Sequence record: KM092515
Reading direction: 5' to 3' (one strand)
Length of the DNA stretch: 64,000 bases
DNA from: Escherichia phage HY02
Shown: positions 20,045 to 37,413 of the stretch, piece after piece
How the letters are laid out: the number at the start of each line of letters is the position of its first letter
Numbering within the stretch: the first letter of the stretch is position 1
Notes under the pieces: model-generated
The model's input: the letters and a program-made list of their open reading frames with translations, nothing else
Databases searched by the model: none
What the model was told of the DNA's origin: nothing
Made by a program: the position numbers and the translations under genes

Positions 20045-20073
20045 AAAATAAAAAAGGCTCCAGAAGGAGCCTA
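20045..20073 (-). terminator. intrinsic terminator downstream of the endolysin gene
   Basis: AGGCTCC-AGAA-GGAGCCT hairpin with an A-run on the + strand (U-run on the - strand transcript). Confidence 0.6.
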
Positions 20074-20081
20074 TGAAGATA

Positions 20082-20546
20082 TTACTTTGGGTATACACTG
20101 TCAAGATAAATGTCAGCTTCCATTCTACGTCTGTTTTTCAGACCGTTTGAAGTGACCTTCTTACCTTTGACTGTAACCTTGTTCCACCACTGCATAGCTT
20201 CTGCACAACCCACCTTATTACCAGCATTGTGGCGCTTGATAAATGTAGAATCCTGCATAGCTGTGATACCGATGTTGTATGTTTCACTTACAAGTGCATC
20301 GAACTCATTCTGAGAAGTTGGAACCTTGATAGCTTTGTTCACTGCTGCAACAAACTTCTCAACATCTGCAAGAAGATACTGTTCAGCTTGTTCAGCAGTA
20401 ATTTTCATACCCATCTTAACAGGTTTTCCGTCAATACGGATTGTACCATACCCGATTGTCGGGATTCCGGCAGAGTCTTCGTAAGCCTCTAACTTCAGAC
20501 CTTCAAAGAACTTAATAGCTTCTAAACCTTTTCTTGAGAGTTGCAT
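20082..20546 (-). CDS. endolysin, T4-type lysozyme (GH24)
   Basis: N-terminal EGLKLEAYEDSAGIPTIGYG matches the T4 lysozyme catalytic-region pattern. Confidence 0.8.
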   Translation of the reverse strand: MQLSRKGLEAIKFFEGLKLEAYEDSAGIPTIGYGTIRIDGKPVKMGMKITAEQAEQYLLADVEKFVAAVNKAIKVPTSQNEFDALVSETYNIGITAMQDSTFIKRHNAGNKVGCAEAMQWWNKVTVKGKKVTSNGLKNRRRMEADIYLDSVYPK

Positions 20547-21679
20547 TATGCCTCCCCTGCTGGGTTAACAGTAACTGTTGCCGCATTAGATGTCACAGAG
20601 CCACCTGCACCAGTAACTACACAGGTGTATGCACCAGCATCAGCAGGGGCTGCTTTAGCTTTCGTGTAAGTTGCACCAGTTGCGCTAGGGATGTTCACAT
20701 TGTCTTTCTTCCATTGGTAACCTGTTGCACCTGTAGCCTCAACGCTCAGCGTCAAACTACTACCTTCGTTGACTGCTTGATTGGTTGGCTGCTTGGTAAT
20801 CACTGGTAGAGCGTTTACTACAACAGTCGCAGGGCTAGAAGTAACAGAACCACCTGCACCCGTTACAACGCAAGTGTATGAACCTGCATCTGCTGGCAGT
20901 GCGCCAGACTTGCTATAAGTAGCTTCTGTAGCTGAAGGGATGTCAGAGCCATCTTTTTTCCATTGGTAACCTGTTGCACCTGTTGCAGCCACTTCCAAGT
21001 TGATATTCCCACCCTCATTGATGGTCTGGCTAGAAGGTTGCTGTGTAATCACAGGTAGTGCATTAACAGTAACTGTTGCCGCGTCTGAAGTAACACTTGT
21101 CCCAGCCTCTCCAGATACAACACAAGTATATGAACCAGCATCGGCAGGTACTACAGATTGTTTTGTGTAAGTTGCAGAAGTGGCACTGGAGATGTCCTCA
21201 CCATCCTTCTTCCACTGATATCCAGTGGCGTTATTTGCGAGAACGCTTAGAGTGAGTGTACCACCCTCATTAACTGTTTGGTTTGTTGGTTGCTGAGTAA
21301 TTGCTGGTGGCTTAATTGCATCCTTCAGCTTAGCATTCAACATTGAGAACGGCTTAACTCTTGCCAACCATTCACAATACACTGTATCAACATCTTTACC
21401 ATTGATAATTGCATATTGTAAATCCATGAAGAAGTCAGAAGTTCTCATTTGAGCACCGACGCTGTAAAGCAAATCATCACTAAAAGGGACTTTATAGTCT
21501 GGTTTGTAGTCAAACTTCTCAACTTCTGCGATATCAGCTTCAGGCCAATATGAGCTATAGGTTAGTGGTAAAATAGCTTCTTGATATGTTCTAAAATCAT
21601 ATCTCTTACCAGCCTTTACGTTTGCAATGAAGCCCTTCACAAACTCTTTGAAGTCTGGGTAAGTCTTTGCTTTAATCAT
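20546..21679 (-). CDS. protein with three tandem Ig-like domains and an N-terminal domain shared with the upstream gene
   Basis: three repeats of roughly 90 aa (PVITQQP..Q.INEGG...L.V.ATGATGYQWKKDG.DI.SAT.ATY...AG.YTCVV.GAGGSVTS..ATV.VN). Confidence 0.6.
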   Translation of the reverse strand: MIKAKTYPDFKEFVKGFIANVKAGKRYDFRTYQEAILPLTYSSYWPEADIAEVEKFDYKPDYKVPFSDDLLYSVGAQMRTSDFFMDLQYAIINGKDVDTVYCEWLARVKPFSMLNAKLKDAIKPPAITQQPTNQTVNEGGTLTLSVLANNATGYQWKKDGEDISSATSATYTKQSVVPADAGSYTCVVSGEAGTSVTSDAATVTVNALPVITQQPSSQTINEGGNINLEVAATGATGYQWKKDGSDIPSATEATYSKSGALPADAGSYTCVVTGAGGSVTSSPATVVVNALPVITKQPTNQAVNEGSSLTLSVEATGATGYQWKKDNVNIPSATGATYTKAKAAPADAGAYTCVVTGAGGSVTSNAATVTVNPAGEA

Positions 21680-22047
21680 TTCTTTTTAGCCTCTAAATGT
21701 GCGTTTAGTCTAAAATAACCTTTATGATGTGAAGATACATCGCCAACAATAATACCTTTAATCTCATAACCCTTACCAATCACATATTGGATATCCATAA
21801 GAAATCTACCAAGACCAACAATATGAAACATTGGATATAATAGATTTTCAGAATCTGGAATGTGCATTTCAGGGTTGTAGGCAGGTTGTTCACTCGTTGG
21901 TGTGATATCTTCTTCAGGCCATTTACTTAGTCTCCATGTCAAAGGTGTTGGGATAACATCACTAAGATTGTACCTCTCACCCTTTTTCACAGAATTGATG
22001 TAGGATTGTAGGAAGCAGTAAAAGTCTTTTGCACTCTTAGCCTTCAT
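21676..22047 (-). CDS. hypothetical protein, paralogous to the N-terminal domain of 20546..21679
   Basis: shared pattern K.K....F..F....I..VK.G.RY...........L....WPE.DI in both N-termini. Confidence 0.5.
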   Translation of the reverse strand: MKAKSAKDFYCFLQSYINSVKKGERYNLSDVIPTPLTWRLSKWPEEDITPTSEQPAYNPEMHIPDSENLLYPMFHIVGLGRFLMDIQYVIGKGYEIKGIIVGDVSSHHKGYFRLNAHLEAKKK

Positions 22048-22056
22048 TAAATATCC

Positions 22057-22088
22057 TTATAAATAGTAAAAGGGGTAATAACCCCCCT
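22057..22088 (-). terminator. intrinsic terminator (- strand)
   Basis: GGGG-TAATAA-CCCC hairpin with A-run upstream on the + strand. Confidence 0.45.
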
Positions 22089-22096
22089 ATCTACAC

Positions 22097-22687
22097 TTAA
22101 GCTTTAGTCTTAAGTAGGTTCTTAAGTTTTTTGAGATTCATACTCTCATCGAACTTAAAACCAAATCCATTGACATAATCAATGAACTCGGATTTTTTAC
22201 TAAGTGATAGCGCATAATCCATATCAAAGTTGTTACTTGTTTCTGCGTCTGGACTAGAGTTCACATCAAATGAAATTTCTGTAGGCTCTTGCTTACTCTT
22301 TCTCATGTTATCAACTAATAAACAGGTATAGTTTGCTGGATAGAAGTTCACGCTCCCATCAACGTAACTGTACTTATTATTGTGGATAAGGTTGGAAAAT
22401 ACCTTAAGAAATGTTTCTGAGTCGTGGCATACAAGCTTGAATTGACTAGACTCTCCAAGAGCAACCAATGAGTACGGACTTTCACTATCAAAGTCATAGT
22501 TTGGATTCGATGCCGTCACTGTTACACGCATCAGGTTATTGGCGATAGTTTTCTGCTTAAAAGAATTTGGAACATAGTGAAGACCTCTGTCACACTGGTT
22601 AACTAGCTCTTTCAAGAGGTCATTTGCATATGGTGAATTAATTGATACAGAGCCATCACTATTGTAATTAAAAGTTACTGTTAACAT
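22097..22687 (-). CDS. hypothetical protein
   Basis: 196-aa ORF. Confidence 0.5.
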   Translation of the reverse strand: MLTVTFNYNSDGSVSINSPYANDLLKELVNQCDRGLHYVPNSFKQKTIANNLMRVTVTASNPNYDFDSESPYSLVALGESSQFKLVCHDSETFLKVFSNLIHNNKYSYVDGSVNFYPANYTCLLVDNMRKSKQEPTEISFDVNSSPDAETSNNFDMDYALSLSKKSEFIDYVNGFGFKFDESMNLKKLKNLLKTKA

Positions 22688-23306: not shown

Positions 23307-23678
23307 ATGAAAAACAGAACAAACAAAGGCCAGTTTAAAAAAGGCCAATCTGGAAACCCATCTGGAAGACCAAAAGGCTCTCGTAACAAAAGCTCACTTG
23401 TAAAAGCTCAACTGACCATTGATAATTCTGCTGAGTTTGCTGCAAAGCTGTTTGAGGCAATTGTTACAAGGGACGCTGCTAAGCTTGCAGAGTTCGGGTT
23501 AAACACAGACGACGTAACCATCAAGAGTATGATTGAGGTCGGTAAAACTATCTTTACTCACTCAGCAGGTGAGATGAAAGCACTTGCAGCAGACACTAAG
23601 AAGACTCCTGATAATGGTGGTCAACCACAGACAGATAACAAACCAACGTTCTCTGCTGTAGCGACTCTCAAAAAATAA
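23307..23678 (+). CDS. hypothetical protein with GNPSGRPKG motif
   Basis: N-terminal KKGQSGNPSGRPKGSRNK basic motif. Confidence 0.5.
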   Translation: MKNRTNKGQFKKGQSGNPSGRPKGSRNKSSLVKAQLTIDNSAEFAAKLFEAIVTRDAAKLAEFGLNTDDVTIKSMIEVGKTIFTHSAGEMKALAADTKKTPDNGGQPQTDNKPTFSAVATLKK

Positions 23679-23759: not shown

Positions 23760-25175
23760 ATGAGCGAGTTATTTAAACATGCGCACCTTCATGCAGGTCG
23801 AACTGAAAATGGTGCTGTAAACCATACTTCATCAATGTCTGCTCTGGTAGACTTCTACAAAGCCGCTGGTTCAAGCCGTAGCAATGTAGAAATCTTACCA
23901 GACCTGTTCTACAAAGCTTTGCGTGAGGATGTTGATGTTGCAGTTCGTATTTTACTGCATATGCGAGATGTACGAGAAGGTATGGGCGAGCGTAAAGCTT
24001 TCCGAACTGTTTTACTTCAAGCGATTGAAGATAAAGTTTTAGAACCTACACAGGTTCTTCGCATTATGGATAAGATTGTAGAACTTGGTCGTTTTGATGA
24101 CTTCAAAATCTTCGTAGGTACTCGTTTCGAGACAGATGCCTTCAAACATTTAGAAGCAGCATTACTAGACCCTGCAACAGCAGGTTTAGCAGCTAAGTGG
24201 TTACCACGAGTAAAACCACGCCACAAACAGTTTGTAAAACGTTTCTGCAAGTTTGCAAACTTAAGCGAGAAAGAGTACCGCACACTGTTATCTGCACTAT
24301 CTGATACAGTTGAACAAAAAATCTCTGCTAATGAGTTTGGTAAGATTGACTACAGTAAGATTCCTTCACTTGCTGCTGCACGTTACCAAAAGCTCTTTAA
24401 CCGCAAAGATGGAGAACGCTACAAAGCTTACATCGAGTCCTTATCAAAGGGTGAGGCTAAGATTAACGCTGGTGCTGTTTACCCATACGATGTGATTAAA
24501 TCTATTAAGTATGGTAATGCAGATGTTGCTAATGAGCAGTGGAAAGCACTTCCAAACTGGATGGCAGAAGGTGAAAACATCTTGTGTATGACTGATGTTT
24601 CAAGCTCAATGTCTTGGGTGAATCTTGGTTCAATCACTGCTCTGGATATTGGTGTATCACTTGCCTTGTATGTAGCAGAACGTAATACAGGTTGCTTTAA
24701 AGATGAGTTAATGGTTTATTCAACAAACCCTCATTTCATTGAACTGAGTGGTGATTTACGAAACCGTCATCGTCAGGTAATGCGTCATGTTGAATATGGT
24801 TCAACTAACTTACAAGCAGCTTTTGACCGTATTCTTGAGGTAGGCAAGAGAAACAACTTGACTCAGAAAGATATGCCAAGTAAGCTTATTATCTTCTCTG
24901 ATATGGAGTTTAATCAGGTTGATGGTGCAAATGGTCGTACAAACTTTGAAGCAATTCAGAGTAAGTACAAAAAAGCTGGATACGAAATGCCACAACTGGT
25001 ATTCTGGTACTTAGCAAACCGTAATGGTACTTGCGAAGTATCCGTTAAGGATAACGGTGTAGCAATGGTATCAGGGTTCTCTCCAGCAACTTTAAAAGCT
25101 CTGCTTGGTGGTGAGAAGTTTGACCCAATCAGCGTAATGCTTAAAGCAGTAATGATTGACCGTTATATCTGGTAA
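23760..25175 (+). CDS. rsr: Ro60/TROVE-like protein with C-terminal vWA domain (Rsr-like)
   Basis: vWA MIDAS motif DVSSSM (Ro60 has DVSASM); YPYDVIKSIKYG resembles Ro60 HPFHILIALETYK; FSDMEF resembles Ro60 FTDNET; C-terminal GFSPATLKAL resembles Ro60 GFDTGALDVI (from recalled Ro60 sequence, not a search). Confidence 0.65.
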   Translation: MSELFKHAHLHAGRTENGAVNHTSSMSALVDFYKAAGSSRSNVEILPDLFYKALREDVDVAVRILLHMRDVREGMGERKAFRTVLLQAIEDKVLEPTQVLRIMDKIVELGRFDDFKIFVGTRFETDAFKHLEAALLDPATAGLAAKWLPRVKPRHKQFVKRFCKFANLSEKEYRTLLSALSDTVEQKISANEFGKIDYSKIPSLAAARYQKLFNRKDGERYKAYIESLSKGEAKINAGAVYPYDVIKSIKYGNADVANEQWKALPNWMAEGENILCMTDVSSSMSWVNLGSITALDIGVSLALYVAERNTGCFKDELMVYSTNPHFIELSGDLRNRHRQVMRHVEYGSTNLQAAFDRILEVGKRNNLTQKDMPSKLIIFSDMEFNQVDGANGRTNFEAIQSKYKKAGYEMPQLVFWYLANRNGTCEVSVKDNGVAMVSGFSPATLKALLGGEKFDPISVMLKAVMIDRYIW

Positions 25176-25340: not shown

Positions 25341-25417
25341 CTCTGTTTAGCTCAGCTTGGTAGAGCGTTCCGTTTGGGGCGGTAAGGCCGGAGGTTCAAG
25401 TCCTCCAACAGAGACCA
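25341..25417 (+). tRNA. tRNA-Pro (UGG)
   Basis: acceptor CTCTGTT/AACAGAG, T-arm GGAGG-TTCAAGT-CCTCC, encoded CCA; anticodon loop TTTGGGG. Confidence 0.55.
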
Positions 25418-25424
25418 AATTAAT

Positions 25425-25502
25425 GTTCCAGTAGACAAAATGGTATAGTCACCACTCTTTCAAAGTGGATATTTGAGGGTTCAAATCCATTCTGGAACGC
25501 CA
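25425..25502 (+). tRNA. tRNA-Glu (UUC)
   Basis: acceptor GTTCCAG/CTGGAAC, anticodon arm CCACT-CTTTCAA-AGTGG, TTCAAAT T-loop with imperfect T-stem. Confidence 0.5.
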
Positions 25503-25509
25503 GTTTTGA

Positions 25510-25582
25510 CAGAAGACCAATTACAGCAAACTTAATCTTATTCATCTGAAGGTAAATCGGACAAAGAAGAGATTTGGTCTGG
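25510..25582 (+). ncRNA. Y-RNA-like element 1 (stem-closed, no tRNA-like domain)
   Basis: 5' CAGAAGACC-AATT...ACAGCAAA and 3' ATTT-GGTCTGG can pair as a terminal stem. Confidence 0.4.
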
Positions 25583-25593
25583 TCATTAAGAAT

Positions 25594-25670
25594 TGCGGGT
25601 ATAGAGAAAGGGCGTCTCACATGTCTCATTAGCATGGTATCGGCAGGTTCGACTCCTGCACCCGCCTCCA
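25594..25670 (+). tRNA. tRNA with CAU anticodon (Met or Ile2), atypical D region
   Basis: T-arm GCAGG-TTCGACT-CCTGC, acceptor TGCGGGT/ACCCGCC with 1-72 mismatch, anticodon arm CATGT-CTCATTA-GCATG, encoded CCA. Confidence 0.4.
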
Positions 25671-25676
25671 ATTTTG

Positions 25677-25736
25677 CAGAAGACCGTATTCAGCAATAAA
25701 CTACTTTTTGCGGATAAAAGAAAAAACACGGTCTGG
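25677..25736 (+). ncRNA. Y-RNA-like element 2
   Basis: 5' CAGAAGACC-GTAT...TCAGCAA and 3' ACAC-GGTCTGG; stem bases co-vary relative to element 1. Confidence 0.4.
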
Positions 25737-25747
25737 CAACGTATTAA

Positions 25748-25821
25748 GGTTAGGAAGCACATGAGGTATGTGCGGTCGCCTGTTAAGCGAATGGCACAGG
25801 GTTCGAATCCCTGACTAACCG
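25748..25821 (+). tRNA. tRNA-Asn (GUU)
   Basis: acceptor GGTTAGG/ACTAACC, D-arm GCAC..GTGC, anticodon loop CTGTTAA, T-arm CAGGG-TTCGAAT-CCCTG. Confidence 0.6.
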
Positions 25822-25832
25822 CAAATTTAAAT

Positions 25833-25920
25833 GTGTCGTTATCCCGTAGATGGTAGCGGTGGGGACTGTAAATCCCTTGTCATTGAGACTCGGTAGGTTC
25901 GACTCCTACACGGCACACCA
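25833..25920 (+). tRNA. tRNA-Tyr (GUA), long variable arm
   Basis: acceptor GTGTCGT/ACGGCAC, anticodon arm GGGGA-CTGTAAA-TCCCT, T-arm GTAGG-TTCGACT-CCTAC, encoded CCA. Confidence 0.6.
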
Positions 25921-25981
25921 ATTTTGAGAGGGCTATTTAGCCCCTCCCTTAAAGGGTTCTTACGAGTATCCTTTAAAGGAG

Positions 25982-26054
25982 CAGAAGACCAAATACAGCA
26001 AGTTATTTAAAATTTCAAGCCAATTCAATTTTGAAAATTTAAAACTTGGTCTGG
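25982..26054 (+). ncRNA. Y-RNA-like element 3 (YrlB-like, no tRNA-like domain)
   Basis: 5' CAGAAGACC-AAAT...ACAGCAAG and 3' CTT-GGTCTGG; interior holds an AT-rich palindrome. Confidence 0.4.
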
Positions 26055-26067
26055 CTCAACAAATTTA

Positions 26068-26199
26068 CAGAAGACCGTTTACAGCAAAACTTAAACAATC
26101 TATTTCTCCGGTAAAGAAAAGGCGAAGGTTCGATTCCTTCACTCGGCAGATGTCGAGTTGGTGTAATGGTAGCACTTAAGATGATAAACAACGGTCTGG
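26068..26199 (+). ncRNA. Y-RNA-like element 4 (YrlA-like) with permuted tRNA-like domain
   Basis: terminal stem AGACCGTT/AACGGTCT; internally T-arm GAAGG-TTCGATT-CCTTC (26124-26140), acceptor-like helix ACTCGGC/GTCGAGT capped by AGAT (26141-26158), D-arm GTGT-AATGGTA-GCAC (26161-26175); T-arm precedes D-arm. Confidence 0.55.
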
Positions 26200-26204
26200 T
26201 AATT

Positions 26205-26339
26205 ATCTTTGTAGATAAGTTATTAAGCTTACCTGTGAGTATGCGACCACAAAGGTGAAAGGGTAAATTCTAGATTTAAACCCAAAAAGACACATCGCTA
26301 CAGACCTTAAGCAAGTCTGGGTAGCTTATCTACAAAGAT
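26205..26339 (+). repeat. structured element closed by a perfect 15-bp inverted repeat
   Basis: ATCTTTGTAGATAAG (26205-26219) and CTTATCTACAAAGAT (26325-26339) flank about 105 nt containing hairpin CAGAC-CTTAAGCAA-GTCTG. Confidence 0.5.
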
Positions 26340-26347
26340 AATTTAAT

Positions 26348-26423
26348 GGAAGTGTAGCAGAATGGTGATGCGGCAGACTTTTAATCTGACAGGCGATGGG
26401 TTCGAATCCCTCCACTTCTACCA
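26348..26423 (+). tRNA. tRNA-Lys (UUU)
   Basis: acceptor GGAAGTG/CACTTCT, anticodon stem CAGA/TCTG with loop CTTTTAA, encoded CCA; T-stem has two mismatches shared with the CUU paralogue. Confidence 0.5.
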
Positions 26424-26427
26424 ATAT

Positions 26428-26504
26428 GGTTCAGTCGCAGATAAGGTAATGCAAGGGTCTCATAAGCCCTATGAATGTGGGTTCGATTCCCATCTGAACC
26501 TCCA
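26428..26504 (+). tRNA. tRNA-Met (CAU)
   Basis: acceptor GGTTCAG/CTGAACC, anticodon arm AGGGT-CTCATAA-GCCCT, T-arm GTGGG-TTCGATT-CCCAT, encoded CCA. Confidence 0.65.
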
Positions 26505-26505
26505 A

Positions 26506-26581
26506 GCTGGTATAGTTAAGAAGGTTATAACACTCCCCTGATAAGGGAACATCGGTGGTTCGATTCCACCTACCAGTACCA
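26506..26581 (+). tRNA. tRNA-Ile (GAU)
   Basis: acceptor GCTGGTA/TACCAGT, D-arm GTTA..TAAC, anticodon loop CTGATAA, T-arm GGTGG-TTCGATT-CCACC, encoded CCA. Confidence 0.65.
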
Positions 26582-26596
26582 ATTTCAATAAAGTTG

Positions 26597-26625
26597 TTGA
26601 CATTGAGATGTGACTACTTTATAGT
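26597..26625 (+). promoter_or_regulatory. internal sigma70-like promoter within the tRNA cluster
   Basis: TTGACA, 17-bp spacer, TATAGT. Confidence 0.5.
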
Positions 26626-26828
26626 AACCTTAGTTTTCGTTGCGTAGCGTCTATTTTGCAAATTTAAAATAAATGCAAACGACAATGTTTTTCTGGCAGT
26701 AGCTTGATAGGCTAAACACCAGTGAGGTCTTCCAATCCCTCATCAAAGAATTTGGCGTACTCGCCCACGGTATGATTAATAAGGTGGGCATCTTTAAGGG
26801 CTTTCTAAGAGAGTCTTTAAAGATTAAT

Positions 26829-26905
26829 GCACCCTTAGTTCAATTGGATAGAGCAACGGTCTTCTAAATCGTTAGTTACAGGTTCGAATCCTGTAGGGTG
26901 TGCCA
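26829..26905 (+). tRNA. tRNA-Arg (UCU)
   Basis: acceptor GCACCCT/AGGGTGT, anticodon arm ACGGT-CTTCTAA-ATCGT, T-arm ACAGG-TTCGAAT-CCTGT, encoded CCA. Confidence 0.65.
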
Positions 26906-27047
26906 ATTAGTTAGCAGATTACTTAGACGACCTAAGCGGGTCTTCCTGTAGGGAGGTGGTCTGTATCTCATGTTTTCCAGAACATGTAAATAATCTGAGA
27001 AGGGGCTTTACAGTGTTGAGATAATACGGTAAGCTTCGAATTATAGT

Positions 27048-27130
27048 ATGGGACGATGTTAAGACTCTAAGGCATGAGCAACGGCCTCCAAAACCGTTTC
27101 AAAGGGGTTCAACTCCTCCGTCCCATGCCA
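27048..27130 (+). tRNA. tRNA-like gene, possibly Trp (CCA); oversized D region
   Basis: acceptor ATGGGAC/GTCCCAT, T-loop TTCAACT, anticodon-like loop CTCCAAA, encoded CCA; 83 nt and D-arm not foldable by eye. Confidence 0.35.
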
Positions 27131-27143
27131 AAGTCTTATTAGG

Positions 27144-27231
27144 GGTAGGTAGCGGCTAATGGTAGCCAAACTGTCTTGAAAACAGTTGCCACTGTAGAGA
27201 TACGGTGAGGGTTCGACTCCTTTACTTACCG
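27144..27231 (+). tRNA. tRNA-Ser (UGA), long variable arm
   Basis: acceptor GGTAGGT/ACTTACC, D-stem GGC/GCC, anticodon arm AACTGT-CTTGAAA-ACAGTT, T-loop TTCGACT. Confidence 0.55.
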
Positions 27232-27489
27232 CCTAATAAGATTTTAAAGCCAAGCTTCATTCGGATGTTGCTTTGGTATCCCTCGTGTATTGTCGTACAC
27301 ACTGATAAAACACCTAGTAGGTGTCACGGAGAAGAGATAATATCAAGCTCTCCAAAGGTTCTAGTCACCGGATTAAACAAGACTATGCAAAGGCCTTTTT
27401 AGGTCTTTTTAGAGGGCTTCTAAGGTTATTACGGCTTGTTGTGGAACCTTGTTGCTTAGGTTCTTAGAAGTTCTCTAAAAAGATTTAAT

Positions 27490-27567
27490 GGGAGATTGAC
27501 GGTAATTGGTAAACCTACCATCCTTAGAAGTTGGTGTTTGAGGGTTCGAATCCCTTGTCTCCCACCA
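27490..27567 (+). tRNA. tRNA with UAG anticodon (Leu-type) but short variable arm
   Basis: acceptor GGGAGAT/GTCTCCC, T-arm GAGGG-TTCGAAT-CCCTT, anticodon loop CTTAGAA, encoded CCA. Confidence 0.4.
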
Positions 27568-27574
27568 AATTAAT

Positions 27575-27650
27575 GCAGGTGTAGCAAAATGGTTATGCGG
27601 CTGACTCTTAATCAGTAAGACGATGGGTTCAATTCCCTCCACCTGTACCA
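27575..27650 (+). tRNA. tRNA-Lys (CUU)
   Basis: acceptor GCAGGTG/CACCTGT, anticodon stem CTGA/TCAG with loop CTCTTAA, encoded CCA; body paralogous to 26348-26423. Confidence 0.5.
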
Positions 27651-27656
27651 AACAAT

Positions 27657-27732
27657 GGGGTCATAGTTTATATGGTTAAAATTCGAGTTTTGCAAACTTG
27701 GGAACTGAGTTCAATTCTCAGTGACTCCACCA
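27657..27732 (+). tRNA. tRNA-Ala (UGC)
   Basis: acceptor GGGGTCA/TGACTCC, anticodon loop TTTGCAA, T-arm CTGAG-TTCAATT-CTCAG, encoded CCA. Confidence 0.6.
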
Positions 27733-27738
27733 ATTAGT

Positions 27739-27813
27739 GCATCCATAGTTTAAACGGGAAAATTACAGTCTTCCAAACTGAGGTTGAGGGTTCGATTCCC
27801 TCTGGATGCTCCA
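27739..27813 (+). tRNA. tRNA-Gly (UCC)
   Basis: acceptor GCATCCA/TGGATGC, anticodon stem CAGT/ACTG with loop CTTCCAA, T-arm GAGGG-TTCGATT-CCCTC, encoded CCA. Confidence 0.65.
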
Positions 27814-27820
27814 AATTAAT

Positions 27821-27896
27821 GCTCCTATCGTATAATTGGCTATTACGGTTGCCTTGTAAGCAACTTATCAGGGTTCGAATCCTTGTGGGAGCACCA
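27821..27896 (+). tRNA. tRNA-Thr (UGU)
   Basis: acceptor GCTCCTA/TGGGAGC, anticodon arm GTTGC-CTTGTAA-GCAAC, T-arm CAGGG-TTCGAAT-CCTTG, encoded CCA. Confidence 0.7.
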
Positions 27897-27993
27897 ATTT
27901 AGAGGTCAAGTGAAAGACCGCTTTGAGTCAACTGAAGACCGTAACAAATTCCACGGAGTTGAGTTAGCGGCACAACTTCAGACCTCTTTTCAC

Positions 27994-28068
27994 ACTCGCT
28001 TAGTTTATATGGTAAAACATCACCCTTACAAGATGAAGAAAAAGGTTCAAGTCCTTTAGTGAGTACCA
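27994..28068 (+). tRNA. tRNA-Val (UAC)
   Basis: acceptor ACTCGCT/AGTGAGT, anticodon loop CTTACAA, T-arm AAAGG-TTCAAGT-CCTTT, encoded CCA. Confidence 0.6.
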
Positions 28069-28069
28069 T

Positions 28070-28147
28070 GTTCCAGTATCCCAATTGGCAGAGGATGCAA
28101 GCTCAAACCTTGTACTAGTGACGGTTCGAATCCGTCTTGGAACACCA
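28070..28147 (+). tRNA. tRNA with CAA anticodon (Leu-type) but short variable arm
   Basis: acceptor GTTCCAG/TTGGAAC, anticodon arm GCAAG-CTCAAAC-CTTGT, T-arm GACGG-TTCGAAT-CCGTC, encoded CCA. Confidence 0.45.
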
Positions 28148-28152
28148 ATTTT

Positions 28153-28228
28153 GCAGGATTAGTTCAAATGGATAGAGCAACAGTCTACGAAGCTGTTAAT
28201 AGGGGTTCGAATCCCTTATCCTGCGCCA
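28153..28228 (+). tRNA. tRNA-Arg (ACG)
   Basis: acceptor GCAGGAT/ATCCTGC, anticodon arm ACAGT-CTACGAA-GCTGT, T-arm AGGGG-TTCGAAT-CCCTT, encoded CCA. Confidence 0.65.
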
Positions 28229-28247
28229 ATTTAAAGAGGCTATTTAA

Positions 28248-28805
28248 ATGAGATACTTGAAGTATGCTTCATGGATTTTCTTAGCTTTGCTAGAACCATT
28301 GGCAGCAATCTTAGCAGTTATCTTAGCACCTTTTGTAGTTCCATTTTACAGTGAGAAGAAAGGACACTTACCTTTTGGATTCAGATGGATGGAGACATAT
28401 GACAACCTGATTGATGGTGATGAAGGTCACGTTAAAAGATGGGCTAAGATTAGAAAGATTGGTAAGCTTGGTGTCTATTTGCAGAGAGTTGGATGGCTCT
28501 GGAGAAACAAAGCTTATAACTTCTCTTACCATGTGTTAGGAAGAGATGTAAAAGATGTTACTAAGTGGAAAGGTAATATCAACGTAAGTTCTGACCCTGA
28601 AGATAATCAGACAGGTTATCTCCTAATGTGGAACAGTAATGCTTGGGGATTATTCGCTTTTATCCCATCAATTAAAGTCTTTGGTAAACAATTCTACTGG
28701 AGAATTTATGTTGGATGGAAGCTAAAAAGTGTTGTCCCAGAAGAAAGAGCATTCTCAAGGGAAAGAGTTATGTTGGCATTCTTTATTCATCCACTGAGAA
28801 AGTAA
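28248..28805 (+). CDS. hypothetical membrane protein embedded in the tRNA cluster
   Basis: 185-aa ORF with N-terminal hydrophobic helix (IFLALLEPLAAILAVILAPFVVPF); lies between tRNA-Arg and tRNA-Gln. Confidence 0.5.
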   Translation: MRYLKYASWIFLALLEPLAAILAVILAPFVVPFYSEKKGHLPFGFRWMETYDNLIDGDEGHVKRWAKIRKIGKLGVYLQRVGWLWRNKAYNFSYHVLGRDVKDVTKWKGNINVSSDPEDNQTGYLLMWNSNAWGLFAFIPSIKVFGKQFYWRIYVGWKLKSVVPEERAFSRERVMLAFFIHPLRK

Positions 28806-28813
28806 AGATTTAA

Positions 28814-28889
28814 AGGGGATTAGTTTACAAGGTTAAAACCTCGGTCTTTGAAATCGAAGAAGTTGGTTCAATTCCAACATCCCCCGCCA
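28814..28889 (+). tRNA. tRNA-Gln (UUG)
   Basis: acceptor AGGGGAT/ATCCCCC with unpaired 1-72, D-arm GTTT..AAAC, anticodon arm TCGGT-CTTTGAA-ATCGA, T-arm GTTGG-TTCAATT-CCAAC, encoded CCA. Confidence 0.65.
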
Positions 28890-28891
28890 AT

Positions 28892-28970
28892 GCTCCATTA
28901 CTCCAATTGGCAGAGAGGCCAGACTTAAAATCTGTGTTATGTATCGGTTCGAATCCGATATGGAGTACCA
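28892..28970 (+). tRNA. tRNA with UAA anticodon (Leu-type), atypical architecture
   Basis: acceptor GCTCCAT/ATGGAGT (alternative TACTCCA/TGGAGTA), anticodon stem CAGA/TCTG with loop CTTAAAA, T-arm ATCGG-TTCGAAT-CCGAT, encoded CCA. Confidence 0.45.
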
Positions 28971-28975
28971 AATTT

Positions 28976-29051
28976 AGCGGTATAGCATAACTGGCAATGC
29001 AGCAGTCTCTGAAGCTGTCTTATTAAGGTTCAAATCCTTATGCCGCTGCCA
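28976..29051 (+). tRNA. tRNA-Gln (CUG)
   Basis: acceptor AGCGGTA/TGCCGCT (A1-U72), D-arm GCAT..ATGC, anticodon arm GCAGT-CTCTGAA-GCTGT, T-arm TAAGG-TTCAAAT-CCTTA, encoded CCA. Confidence 0.55.
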
Positions 29052-29082
29052 CTTCTAAGGATTCTTACGAGAGTCCTTAGAA

Positions 29083-29158
29083 GTGGCCTTATCATAAATG
29101 GTAATGACCCATGCTGTGAACATGGTCTATACGGGTTCAAATCCCGTAGGTCACCCCA
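29083..29158 (+). tRNA. tRNA-His (GUG)
   Basis: acceptor GTGGCCT/AGGTCAC, anticodon arm CCATG-CTGTGAA-CATGG, T-arm ACGGG-TTCAAAT-CCCGT, encoded CCA. Confidence 0.7.
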
Positions 29159-29163
29159 ATTTA

Positions 29164-29240
29164 TAGTCCAAGTAGCTTATATGGTTAAAGCGCGTGTCTG
29201 AAAAACATGAGAAGAGGGTTCAAATCCCACTGGACTACCA
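29164..29240 (+). tRNA. tRNA-Phe (GAA)
   Basis: acceptor TAGTCCA/TGGACTA, D-stem GCTT/AAGC, anticodon arm CGTGT-CTGAAAA-ACATG, TTCAAAT T-loop; spacing between acceptor and D-stem is non-canonical. Confidence 0.5.
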
Positions 29241-29256
29241 ATTTCAAAGGTGCTTA

Positions 29257-29991
29257 ATGAAAGAGATGACAGAACAAGGTAAGGAGATTTTTAATCTCTT
29301 AAAAACTGGTAAAGGGTTTTCTAACCCCCTTATTACTGGTGCAGCAGTTCTCGGTGGAACCGTAGCTGCCTCTACATCACTTGTAAGCTCTATTAGCTCT
29401 GTATCAGACCCTACAGTAAAGGATAAGCTTGTTGCTGCTGGACTTACAACAGTTCTGCTTAACAGCTTTACCACGAGTCTGACAAGCACTACATCAACTA
29501 CCAAAACACTAACAGATTACGGTCAAAAGTCCATTGATGAGTTTTCATCACGTATGCAGGTAGCAAAAGGTTACTCTAATGTTATGGGTGCAGCAGGTGA
29601 ACAAGTTGGCTGTACACCATTTAGTGGTATTATGGGTGTTGCTACAGAGTATGGTCAAAAAGCTATTGATACGATTAACAGTGCACTAGATAGTGTTAAT
29701 GGTGTGTTAAGTGACTTACAAGATGCTATTGACAAAGGTCTTGATACTATTTCTGATTTAGCTGAGCAAGCTGTTAGTAAGATTAATGAAGGTATTTCAA
29801 AAATTACAGCTTATGCAGATGAAGTTGTGCAGATGATTGAAGAAGAAGCTGCTCTTATTGCAGAGTACCTTAAAACGAATATCAATGGGTTCTTAGCAGG
29901 TATCTTACCAGACTGGTTTGATGATGCTTGTAAAACTGGTGTGATTGACACTATTGCAACACCAGAAATGAAGAACGCATTACAGAAATAA
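29257..29991 (+). CDS. hypothetical Ser/Thr-rich protein
   Basis: ORF track start 29194 overlaps tRNA-Phe; in-frame ATG at 29257 follows GGTGCTTA, the same context as the terminase start. Confidence 0.5.
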   Translation: MKEMTEQGKEIFNLLKTGKGFSNPLITGAAVLGGTVAASTSLVSSISSVSDPTVKDKLVAAGLTTVLLNSFTTSLTSTTSTTKTLTDYGQKSIDEFSSRMQVAKGYSNVMGAAGEQVGCTPFSGIMGVATEYGQKAIDTINSALDSVNGVLSDLQDAIDKGLDTISDLAEQAVSKINEGISKITAYADEVVQMIEEEAALIAEYLKTNINGFLAGILPDWFDDACKTGVIDTIATPEMKNALQK

Positions 29992-29992
29992 T

Positions 29993-30085
29993 GGAAGATT
30001 AACCCTAAAAGGTAAGGGAGCAGTTTGCTAAACTGCCAGTAGCTGAGAAATCGGTGTACCAGTTCAAGTCTGGTATCTTCCTCCA
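29993..30085 (+). tRNA. tRNA-Ser (GCU), long variable arm
   Basis: acceptor GGAAGAT/ATCTTCC, D-stem CCC/GGG, anticodon arm GCAGT-TTGCTAA-ACTGC, T-arm ACCAG-TTCAAGT-CTGGT, encoded CCA. Confidence 0.65.
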
Positions 30086-30089
30086 ATTT

Positions 30090-30165
30090 GAATCCGTGAC
30101 AGAAATGGCTATGTGCCTGTCTGCAAAACAGGTTTATAAGGGTTCGAGTCCCTTCGGATTCTCCA
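30090..30165 (+). tRNA. tRNA-Cys (GCA)
   Basis: acceptor GAATCCG/CGGATTC, anticodon arm CCTGT-CTGCAAA-ACAGG, T-arm AAGGG-TTCGAGT-CCCTT, encoded CCA. Confidence 0.65.
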
Positions 30166-30588: not shown

Positions 30589-30609
30589 TTCTATTTGCGG
30601 AGGTGCTTA

Positions 30610-36306: not shown

Positions 36307-37413
36307 ATGTTGACTAATTCTGAAAAAAGCAGATTTTTCCTTGCTGACCTGACTGGTGAAGTCCAGTCTATCCCAAATACTTATGGGTATATTTCCAACT
36401 TAGGTCTGTTCCGTTCAGCACCAATCACCCAAACTACTTTCCTGATGGACTTAACTGATTGGGATGTTAGCTTGCTTGATGCGGTAGACCGTGATAGCCG
36501 TAAAGCAGAGACTAGCGCACCTGAACGTGTTCGTCAAATCAGCTTCCCAATGATGTACTTCAAAGAAGTTGAAAGCATTACTCCTGATGAGATTCAGGGT
36601 GTACGTCAGCCAGGCACTGCAAATGAACTGACTACTGAAGCTGTAGTACGTGCTAAGAAGCTGATGAAGATTCGTACCAAGTTCGATATTACTCGTGAGT
36701 TCCTGTTTATGCAAGCTCTGAAGGGTAAAGTTGTTGATGCTCGTGGTACTCTGTATGCTGACCTGTACAAGCAGTTCGACGTTGAGAAGAAGACTATTTA
36801 CTTCGACCTTGACAATCCTAATGCTGACATTGACGCTGCTATTGAAGAACTGCGTATGCACATGGAAGACGAAGCTAAGACTGGCACTGTAATCAACGGT
36901 GAAGAAATTCACGTAGTTGTTGACCGCTTATTCTTCAGCAAACTGGTTAAACATCCTAAGATTCGTGATGCTTATCTTGCACAGCAGACTCCGCTGGCTT
37001 GGCAACAGATTACTGGTTCTCTGAGAACTGGTGGCACTGACGGCGTTCAGGCTCATATGAACACCTTCTACTACGGTGGTGTTAAGTTTGTCCAGTACAA
37101 CGGTAAGTTCAAAGACAAGCGTGGTAAGGTTCACACTCTGGTGAGCATTGATAATGTAGCAGCAACTGTTGGTGTTGGTCATGCCTTCCCTAACGTATCT
37201 ATGCTGGGTGAAGCTAACAACATCTTCGAAGTGGCATATGGTCCATGTCCTAAGATGGGTTATGCAAATACACTTGGTCAGGAACTGTACGTATTCGAAT
37301 ACGAAAAAGACCGTGACGAAGGTATTGACTTCGAAGCTCACTCTTACATGCTGCCATACTGCACACGTCCTCAGTTGCTGGTAGACGTTCGTTCTGACGC
37401 TAAATCAAACTAA
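36307..37413 (+). CDS. major capsid protein
   Basis: 368-aa ORF after protease/scaffold with strong RBS and codon usage suggesting high expression; assigned by gene order. Confidence 0.6.
   Translation: MLTNSEKSRFFLADLTGEVQSIPNTYGYISNLGLFRSAPITQTTFLMDLTDWDVSLLDAVDRDSRKAETSAPERVRQISFPMMYFKEVESITPDEIQGVRQPGTANELTTEAVVRAKKLMKIRTKFDITREFLFMQALKGKVVDARGTLYADLYKQFDVEKKTIYFDLDNPNADIDAAIEELRMHMEDEAKTGTVINGEEIHVVVDRLFFSKLVKHPKIRDAYLAQQTPLAWQQITGSLRTGGTDGVQAHMNTFYYGGVKFVQYNGKFKDKRGKVHTLVSIDNVAATVGVGHAFPNVSMLGEANNIFEVAYGPCPKMGYANTLGQELYVFEYEKDRDEGIDFEAHSYMLPYCTRPQLLVDVRSDAKSN

Follow-up and report, generated by a model that had tools for sequence, protein, structure and literature searches.

A putative Hoc-like capsid decoration gene and a stand-alone paralogue of its capsid-binding domain beside the endolysin gene of Escherichia phage HY02

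In the T=9 heads of phages Bas63 (Escherichia phage JohannRWettstein) and Sf14, both studied by cryo-electron microscopy (cryo-EM), a capsid-binding domain (CapBD) of ~118 amino acids (aa) at the N-terminus sits as a monomer at the centre of the pentamer-adjacent hexamers, and the immunoglobulin (Ig) domains of the same protein are flexible and unresolved in the capsid structures (PMC12609058, PMC11821841). The protein, a Hoc-like decoration protein according to both studies, is known as Hex-Dec in Bas63 and as gp20 in Sf14. In Sf14, its Arg79 and Arg107 are salt-bridged to Asp221 in three subunits of the major capsid protein (MCP) (PMC11821841). According to the Bas63 study, the annotation of Hex-Dec as a tail protein is wrong, its gene lies >10 kb outside the structural module, and the number of Ig domains ranges from one to four within the genus (PMC12609058). 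Here we characterize the corresponding locus in a 64,000-nucleotide (nt) stretch of DNA from Escherichia phage HY02 (sequence record KM092515; hereafter the window, in whose numbering all positions are given), where three consecutive minus-strand genes encode a stand-alone paralogue of the CapBD, an Ig-domain protein of 377 aa and an endolysin. The main finding for the gene pair is already known, Hex-Dec having been published as a head-decoration protein together with its location and variable Ig number; what goes slightly beyond the published papers is a nucleotide-level view of how the Ig copy number changes, and the observation of an anchor-only duplicate that has persisted next to the decoration gene through deep divergence although it is dispensable in culture. 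The principal features, with the evidence for each in brackets, are:

21676..22047, minus strand: stand-alone paralogue of the CapBD, 123 aa, without Ig domains, PHROG 4463 ("unknown function") (list of open reading frames (ORFs), PHROG)
20546..21679, minus strand: putative Hex-Dec (Hoc-like hexamer decoration protein), complete gene, 377 aa (ORF, Pfam, PHROG and PDB matches)
21311..21679, minus strand: CapBD of Hex-Dec, aa 1-123, with contact residues Arg79 and Arg107 (matches to 9NCF_S and 9C2D_S)
21059..21310, minus strand: Ig-like repeat 1, aa 124-207 (repeat finder, Pfam)
20810..21058, minus strand: Ig-like repeat 2, aa 208-290 (repeat finder, Pfam)
20558..20809, minus strand: Ig-like repeat 3, aa 291-374 (repeat finder, Pfam)
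20082..20546, minus strand: endolysin of the T4-lysozyme type, 154 aa, third gene of the unit (Phage_lysozyme PF00959, 6.6e-41)
36307..37413, plus strand: MCP, the predicted binding partner of Hex-Dec (9NCF_A, E 1.4e-247)

The window belongs to a Felix O1-like myophage of the genus Felixounavirus, and a 2.7-kb region of it exhibited 90-92% identity to many genomes of that genus (247 records). The ORF at 20546-21679, which had been put forward in a preliminary description of the sequence, was found on the minus strand with a length of 377 aa. When its product was compared with the PDB by phmmer, it matched chain S of 9NCF ("Immunoglobulin-like domain protein"), the Hex-Dec of Bas63 from the same genus, with an E value of 6.6e-292 over aa 1-372 (PMC12609058), and chain S of 9C2D/9C3A ("Tail protein"), the gp20 of Sf14 from the sister genus Mooglevirus, with an E value of 1.3e-166 (PMC11821841). 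Both matches started at residue 1, and the N-terminal ~120-aa domain is homologous to 9NCF_S and 9C2D_S. The first 125 aa are 86% identical to those of Sf14 gp20, with Arg79 and Arg107 both at the same positions, and the MCP of the window is near-identical to that of Bas63 (9NCF_A), with aspartate at residue 221; the contact set of Arg79, Arg107 and MCP Asp221 is thereby complete. The gene also occupies the conserved locus of the family i.e., directly upstream of the endolysin gene and away from the structural module, and its product ends in an array of Ig-like domains (three, against one to four in the genus). Every defining feature of the Hex-Dec/gp20 family that is testable by sequence was thus found in the 377-aa protein which, judged by these comparisons, is the Hoc-like hexamer decoration protein of the genus and the orthologue of Bas63 Hex-Dec and Sf14 gp20. 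Overall, a Hoc-like decoration protein accompanied by a duplicated CapBD is very probably the best explanation of the locus.

The two orthologues differ from the window protein in their Ig parts. Bas63 Hex-Dec shares with it the N-terminal CapBD, the I-set repeats, the near-identical MCP partner and a gene outside the structural module, but possesses four Ig domains rather than three, a difference of one in-register unit that is shown below against the four-Ig orthologue of phage PK6. Sf14 has three Ig domains and the same gene order as the window i.e., gp21 (the paralogue), gp20 and gp19 (the endolysin), and its Ig domains are more diverged than its CapBD (Ig1 dN 0.31).

It is exceedingly improbable that this 377-aa protein belongs to the tail, or that it assists the adjoining endolysin in lysis or at the cell wall. 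Such roles are suggested by the database labels ("tail protein" or "major tail protein" in most GenBank records; PHROG 3995) and by the overlap of the Hex-Dec gene with the start codon of the endolysin gene. However, the orthologous N-domain has been seen on capsid hexamers by cryo-EM (9NCF, 9C2D), the Bas63 authors have rejected the tail annotation (PMC12609058) and, apart from PHROG 3995, matches to the tail and Hoc families of PHROG are limited to the Ig region. The label "tail protein", contradicted for the orthologues, is very probably wrong for this protein. The main value of the analysis lies in the correct annotation: what most Felixounavirus records label "tail protein" decorates the head, and orthologous structures of it have been solved.

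By analogy with the orthologues, every hexamer adjacent to a pentamer of the T=9 capsid would bind one Hex-Dec monomer. The ~120-aa N-terminal CapBD of the monomer would insert in the acidic centre of the hexamer, there to salt-bridge MCP Asp221 through Arg79 and Arg107, and the three I-set Ig domains would project outward as a flexible fibre. This anchoring mechanism is established in the orthologues and fully compatible with the window sequence. Virion decoration, named in the preliminary description among the usual roles of Ig-like domains in phages, holds here, the orthologues being capsid decoration proteins by cryo-EM on Bas63 and Sf14 heads (PMC12609058, PMC11821841). In Felix O1, a 2010 study detected gp36 (31.6 kDa) in purified virions by mass spectrometry (14 peptides, 44% coverage) and found by reverse transcription-PCR (RT-PCR) that expression of ORFs 36 and 37 was maximal at 60 min, alongside morphogenesis genes (PMC3185647). 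From the gene order beside the lysin gp35, the size of 31.6 kDa and the annotation notes of phage AYO145A, we infer that gp36 is Hex-Dec and gp37 the paralogue. In a gene-essentiality screen of Bas63, the Ig-domain protein g124 was conditionally important, mattering more with S17-1 as host than on three further strains (PMC11482910). We take g124 to be Hex-Dec and, on the basis of this result and of the proposal made for T4 Hoc, the Ig fibre probably gives weak adhesion to surfaces, mucus or cells. Nothing substantive was found against the identification as Hex-Dec, in which the placement on the head would be that of the orthologues and the function of the fibre that suggested by these comparisons.

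The likeness to T4 Hoc consists in one monomer per hexamer centre, a small capsid-binding domain from which a string of Ig-like domains projects, and dispensability (PMC12609058, PMC11821841). In Hoc, however, the capsid-binding domain is C-terminal and the Ig domains are N-terminal, the reverse of the window protein, and the CapBD, which is without pseudo-C2 symmetry, has a topologically distinct fold (PMC12609058). Matches of the window protein to Hoc-like PHROG families covered aa 120-371 only i.e., the Ig part. Given the reversed domain order and the different anchor fold, the window protein does not belong to the Hoc family. The decoration proteins 5LXK, which we take to be T5 pb10, and 8ZVI ("Decoration protein") possess one Ig domain, similar to aa 298-374 of the window protein (E 5e-13 and 1e-12, respectively), and no similarity of their capsid-binding part was detected. 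In these single-Ig proteins of the T5 pb10 type, as in the window protein, a capsid-binding domain at the N-terminus precedes the Ig part (PMC11821841). A homologous CapBD was found in Kolesnikvirus, the group of Erwinia phage phiEa21-4, for example in Fifi318 gp116 (profile E 3e-10, 35% identity). Its gene occupies the same slot directly upstream of the lysin gene, but a Big_2-type domain replaces the I-set Ig domains and no stand-alone CapBD lies upstream.

The Ig part of the window protein comprises three tandem units. The preliminary description was right as to their number, which Pfam supports, and as to their place in the sequence (units within 20558-21310); the size given there, ~90 aa or ~270 bp, was slightly too large, the units measuring 84, 83 and 84 aa, or 249-252 bp. 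Pfam models Ig_3 (3.1e-34), Ig_2 (8.1e-28) and I-set (6.5e-25) each matched in three stretches. Every unit opens with P-x-I-T-x-Q-P, and the pairwise identities are 70-72% at the protein and 62-70% at the DNA level, with direct-repeat spacings of 249 and 252 bp; Tandem Repeats Finder did not report these repeats because they are too diverged. Absence from virions combined with a non-Ig nature of the repeats, named in the preliminary description as the outcome that would speak against it, is contradicted by the orthologues on capsids and by the Pfam Ig matches. On the opposite strand, ORFs at 20541-20669, 20781-20918 and 21000-21170 (region 20534-21170) have near-repeated translations (…VTEPPAPVTTQVY.PASAG…); these plus-strand ORFs are, by their position and sequence, antisense shadows of the Ig repeats and not genes.

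The number of Ig domains was counted in individually fetched Ounavirinae genomes. The orthologue of SP22 possesses one (210 aa), those of VpaE1, mio, SUSP2 and Moogle two (294 aa), those of the window, AYO145A, wV8, Phi87 and Sf14 three (372-377 aa), and that of PK6 four (461 aa). SP22 (L006) and wV8 (L010) are both filed as Felixounavirus wV8, yet have one and three Ig domains, respectively; such a difference within one species indicates that Ig copy number shifts on very short evolutionary timescales. The nearest relative of the window protein is that of PK6. Up to ACTGGTGCAGGTGG, window repeat 3 is almost exactly PK6 repeat 3; beyond it, the sequence is almost exactly that of the PK6 repeat 4 tail. 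Window repeat 3 is thus a hybrid of the 5' part of repeat 3 and the 3' tail of repeat 4, whose junction falls in the shared ACTGGTGCAGGTGG stretch. As read from the two sequences, such a hybrid is what a crossover in register between adjacent repeats leaves behind, by which exactly one unit would have been lost in the window, or gained in PK6. In-register recombination between repeats would be the means by which Ig copy number is altered, a process that matters if Hex-Dec proteins are to serve as display scaffolds on therapeutic phages of the Felix O1 type.

The second member of the pair is the product of ORF 21676-22047. The claim that its whole length (123 aa) is paralogous to the N-terminal ~120 aa of Hex-Dec was borne out by BLASTP, with 36% identity (36/101 identities, E 6e-17). 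Each of the two proteins also matched the PHROG family of the other (9e-16 and 4.6e-16), and in the PDB the paralogue matched 9C2D_S (E 1.8e-11) and 9NCF_S (E 3.2e-11). The two families have 29 invariant columns in common, including W-P-E-x-D-I, L-L-Y, F-x-M-D-x-Q and L-N-A, and the C-terminal half of the paralogue is almost invariant. An AlphaFold2 (AF2) model of the paralogue (pLDDT 81, pTM 0.81) had TM scores of 0.74-0.76 to 9C2D_S/9NCF_S over ~120 residues, a match to be read with the caveat that the underlying alignment included CapBD sequences; this model, from a more diverse alignment, superseded a first one from a shallow alignment (pLDDT 64). No further match to the model was found in the PDB (next E 0.7), and in a viral structure library only Ounavirinae proteins matched. 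The paralogue is therefore similar to the CapBD over its full length in both sequence and predicted fold, and ends with this domain, carrying no displayed domain of the Ig, Big_2 or any other type.

By its substitution pattern the paralogue is a real gene under purifying selection: dN/dS was 0.13-0.14 at a dS of ~1 (nine phages, three genera), while the CapBD, Ig1 and the lysin had values of 0.04, 0.10 and 0.09, respectively. By tblastn it was present in ~231 of the 251 matching phage records, which represent Felixounavirus, Mooglevirus and Suspvirus, the remaining ~20 (~8%) matching through Hex-Dec only. The sole record of the latter kind that was inspected, phage mio (L003, 2306-2498), contains a remnant in which the start codon is destroyed and ~220 nt are deleted internally, and whose 3' end, with the ribosome-binding site of Hex-Dec, is preserved; the other records without a paralogue match may have similar deletions. 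Tf, REP7 and REP9 are further candidate natural deletion phages. One could take the gene for a decaying, functionless relic of the duplication, since it is deleted in ~20 of 251 genomes with viability kept, but this is very unlikely in view of the dN/dS at such a dS, the intact ORF both in ~231 records and in a lineage whose copy has just 43% identity, and the almost invariant C-terminal half.

That lineage is represented by an 87-kb metagenomic scaffold, found by exact-sequence look-up after scans of viral and metagenome contigs had confirmed nothing, on which a 195-aa ORF, the stand-alone CapBD (P0097), a two-Ig Hex-Dec and a lysozyme are encoded in the same order as in the window. The paralogue thus occurs in four lineages. 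In a neighbour-joining tree, the stand-alone copies formed one clade and the Ig-bearing CapBDs another, which argues for a single old duplication with both copies retained. A profile of both families, run against 1.84 billion cluster representatives, retrieved only 12 proteins at E <=0.001, all of them stand-alone copies or CapBDs fused to I-set Ig domains, a Big_2 domain or a K/S-rich tail. A Felix O1-type gene pair with 89% protein identity was also seen in GU169904.1 ("Staphylococcus phage SA1", 143190-143558), a record that may be chimeric or mislabelled.

The sequence of the paralogue is in no PDB chain, though for both Sf14 and Bas63 models of the capsid, neck and tail have been deposited. 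The published list of Felix O1 virion proteins does not include it, an absence that is weak evidence, as the >=25% coverage cut-off of that list also dropped genuine baseplate and fibre proteins (PMC3185647), and gp21 is not in the table of structural gene products of Sf14 (PMC11821841); none of these absences decides the matter. Neither the word "paralog" nor Sf14 gp21 is mentioned in the Bas63 and Sf14 structural papers (PMC12609058, PMC11821841), matches to gp21 in the Sf14 supplementary text refer only to SPP1 gp21, and a literature search found no further paper discussing the stand-alone CapBD paralogue. The GenBank annotation of VpaE1 was considered as a stand-in for the mass spectrometry list of its virion proteins, and was set aside because it does not reflect the mass spectrometry results.

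The paralogue arose by an ancient tandem duplication of the CapBD and lacks the Ig array. We tentatively propose that it still docks on MCP hexamer centres without being a stable, ordered component of the virion. In head assembly or maturation, it would serve as a placeholder or competitor without Ig domains and so set the timing or the extent of Hex-Dec binding. The grounds for this proposal are that capsid anchoring is the only known role of the CapBD fold, that position and overlapping codons lock the gene to Hex-Dec, that the paralogue is absent from all PDB chains and from the Felix O1 virion list, and that its contact residues have changed. These residues also weigh against the proposal: the position of Arg79 is occupied by Gly in every stand-alone copy and that of Arg107 by His, or by Lys in the metagenomic copy P0097, and the conserved hairpin motif K-P-[FY] has become K-G-Y, so that neither the capsid-contact residues nor this motif are retained. 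Furthermore, both cryo-EM papers report an absence of density on the other hexamer class (PMC12609058, PMC11821841), and the viability of ~20 cultured phages without an intact copy indicates that the paralogue is dispensable in culture. The hairpin tip is still basic (H/R-K/R). Net charge and pI, compared between the paralogue and the CapBD, were uninformative as they vary within each family.

The same changes could mean that the paralogue is no longer capsid-related and either binds Hex-Dec, as a chaperone or antagonist, or has an unrelated function in the infected cell, which we consider possible though rather doubtful. The paralogue is without the Arg79 equivalent and the K-P-[FY] motif that are present in almost all domain-carrying CapBDs, evolves approximately three times faster than the CapBD (dN/dS 0.14 vs 0.04), and has not been seen in virions. 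On the other hand, no role of its fold other than capsid anchoring is known, with all clusters other than the stand-alone ones carrying an Ig, Big_2 or low-complexity extension (among the 12 representatives retrieved from 1.84 billion), and the gene has stayed strictly adjacent to Hex-Dec through deep divergence.

Alternatively, the paralogue could be a stable virion protein that caps the 20 three-fold-axis hexamers left free by Hex-Dec, in which case two paralogous plugs would serve the two hexamer classes of the T=9 shell. The complete CapBD fold predicted for the paralogue and its basic hairpin tip would suit this role, as would its probable late expression together with Hex-Dec, whose start codon it overlaps. 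The published contact positions are exactly those at which its residues differ, the geometry of MCP Asp221 is different in the three-fold hexamers of Sf14 (PMC11821841), and icosahedral averaging would smear a monomer on a strict three-fold axis. Both structural papers, however, see no density there (PMC12609058, PMC11821841), and the paralogue is in neither the Felix O1 virion proteome list nor the Sf14 structural table, and in no PDB chain; we regard a stable cap as unlikely.

The tentatively preferred assembly role and the three-fold cap share the more general idea that the paralogue is an unrecognised second binder of hexamer centres, be it a three-fold cap blurred by averaging or a transient occupant that sets where and when Hex-Dec binds during assembly. 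In this general form, the idea appears somewhat unlikely. If true, it would mean that a T=9 capsid is decorated in a class-specific way by means of a paralogue. The paralogue is a cheap, testable handle on how such a capsid confines a decoration protein to one hexamer class, and natural deletion strains such as mio are available for comparison.

The gene pair and the endolysin gene form a compact unit on the minus strand, ordered paralogue, Hex-Dec, endolysin, with overlapping stop and start codons. The signals that delimit and connect the genes are:

22069..22088, minus strand: terminator-like G+C hairpin (AGGGGGGTTATTACCCCTTT, followed by a T-rich tail), directly upstream of the three-gene unit
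22054..22058, minus strand: Shine-Dalgarno sequence AAGGA of the paralogue, 6 nt ahead of its ATG at 22047 (read from the sequence)
21676..21679, minus strand: ATGA overlap of the paralogue stop and the Hex-Dec start, with a GAGG Shine-Dalgarno sequence 10 nt upstream
20055..20072, minus strand: terminator-like hairpin and T-run (AGGCTCCTTCTGGAGCCT TTTTTATTTT) at the end of the unit, 3' of the endolysin gene

The Hex-Dec stop and the endolysin start overlap as TAATG, with a GGGGAGG Shine-Dalgarno sequence within the 3' end of the Hex-Dec gene. AAGGATA ahead of the paralogue start was kept in 10/10 phages compared, and overlap or close abutment of the paralogue and Hex-Dec genes in all of them; at their junction in the window, the ATGA overlap and the GAGG suggest translational coupling. 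The same junction (21680-21692, minus strand) reads GCT AAA AAG AAA TGA and contains a dnaX-like AAAAAG run, with Hex-Dec in the -1 frame. A programmed -1 frameshift at this run before the paralogue stop could, on its face, fuse both ORFs into one protein with two CapBDs followed by three Ig domains, but we give this hardly any credence. The slippery run is absent in wV8 (GAAAAG) as well as in Sf14 and Moogle (AAGAAA), Hex-Dec of SUSP2 is in the +1 frame, and the ATGA overlap with its upstream GAGG offers a simpler reading. With neither the slippery run nor the frame relation conserved, the candidate frameshift was rejected and the AAAAAG is probably incidental.

The upstream hairpin at 22069-22088 was compared with nine other phages (L001, L002, L004 and L006-L011), in which its stem is preserved by compensatory changes (GGGGGGTTATTACCCC, GGGGCTGATGCCCC, GGGGCGAAAGCCCC), and both flanking hairpins carry a rho-independent terminator annotation in AYO145A and wV8. 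Only ~21 nt separate this hairpin from the ATG of the paralogue, which leaves no room for a standard promoter, and no sigma-70-like site was found between the two; read-through or an unrecognised late promoter must therefore serve the unit. A conserved TATTTATAAGGA upstream of the paralogue was considered as a recurring late-promoter motif and rejected, with one occurrence in the window against a chance expectation of 0.58. Upstream of the unit lies a 196-aa ORF (22097-22687, minus strand; PHROG 4034, unknown function; no Pfam match) that is syntenic in all Ounavirinae examined. An ORF of similar size, compared by position and size only, occupies this slot in the Erwinia phage and in the divergent metagenomic lineage.

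As the preliminary description had stated, the neighbour at 20082-20546 is an endolysin gene, and the Hex-Dec gene lies outside the structural module, on the strand opposite to the MCP gene at 36307 and 14.6 kb from it. The distance to the ORF at 30595, which we take from synteny with VpaE1 to be the putative large terminase gene, is about 8.9 kb. The paradox of a structural-type gene beside a lysin gene, raised in the preliminary description, is real and already resolved in the literature, the location of Hex-Dec beside the lysin being a conserved feature of the subfamily. The preliminary description grouped the gene with lysis and early genes; in Felix O1, the two genes equated with this pair peaked late by RT-PCR. 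These Felix O1 data, along with the overlapping codons and the terminator-like hairpins on either side, support late co-expression of Hex-Dec and the endolysin. The unit would be expressed late together with head assembly, in which case the Hex-Dec gene need not sit in the structural module.

Between this decoration and lysin unit and the packaging and head genes lies an array of 25 tRNA genes (25341-30165, plus strand), which includes two each for tRNA-Met, Lys, Arg, Ser and Gln, and three for Leu. Just ahead of the array, on the strand opposite to the unit, a 471-aa protein with DUF2828 and DUF7788 domains is encoded at 23760-25175 (plus strand), which is labelled "vWFA protein" or "RNA-binding protein" in related phage records. 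Its gene is preceded by that of a DUF5681 protein (23307-23678, plus strand).

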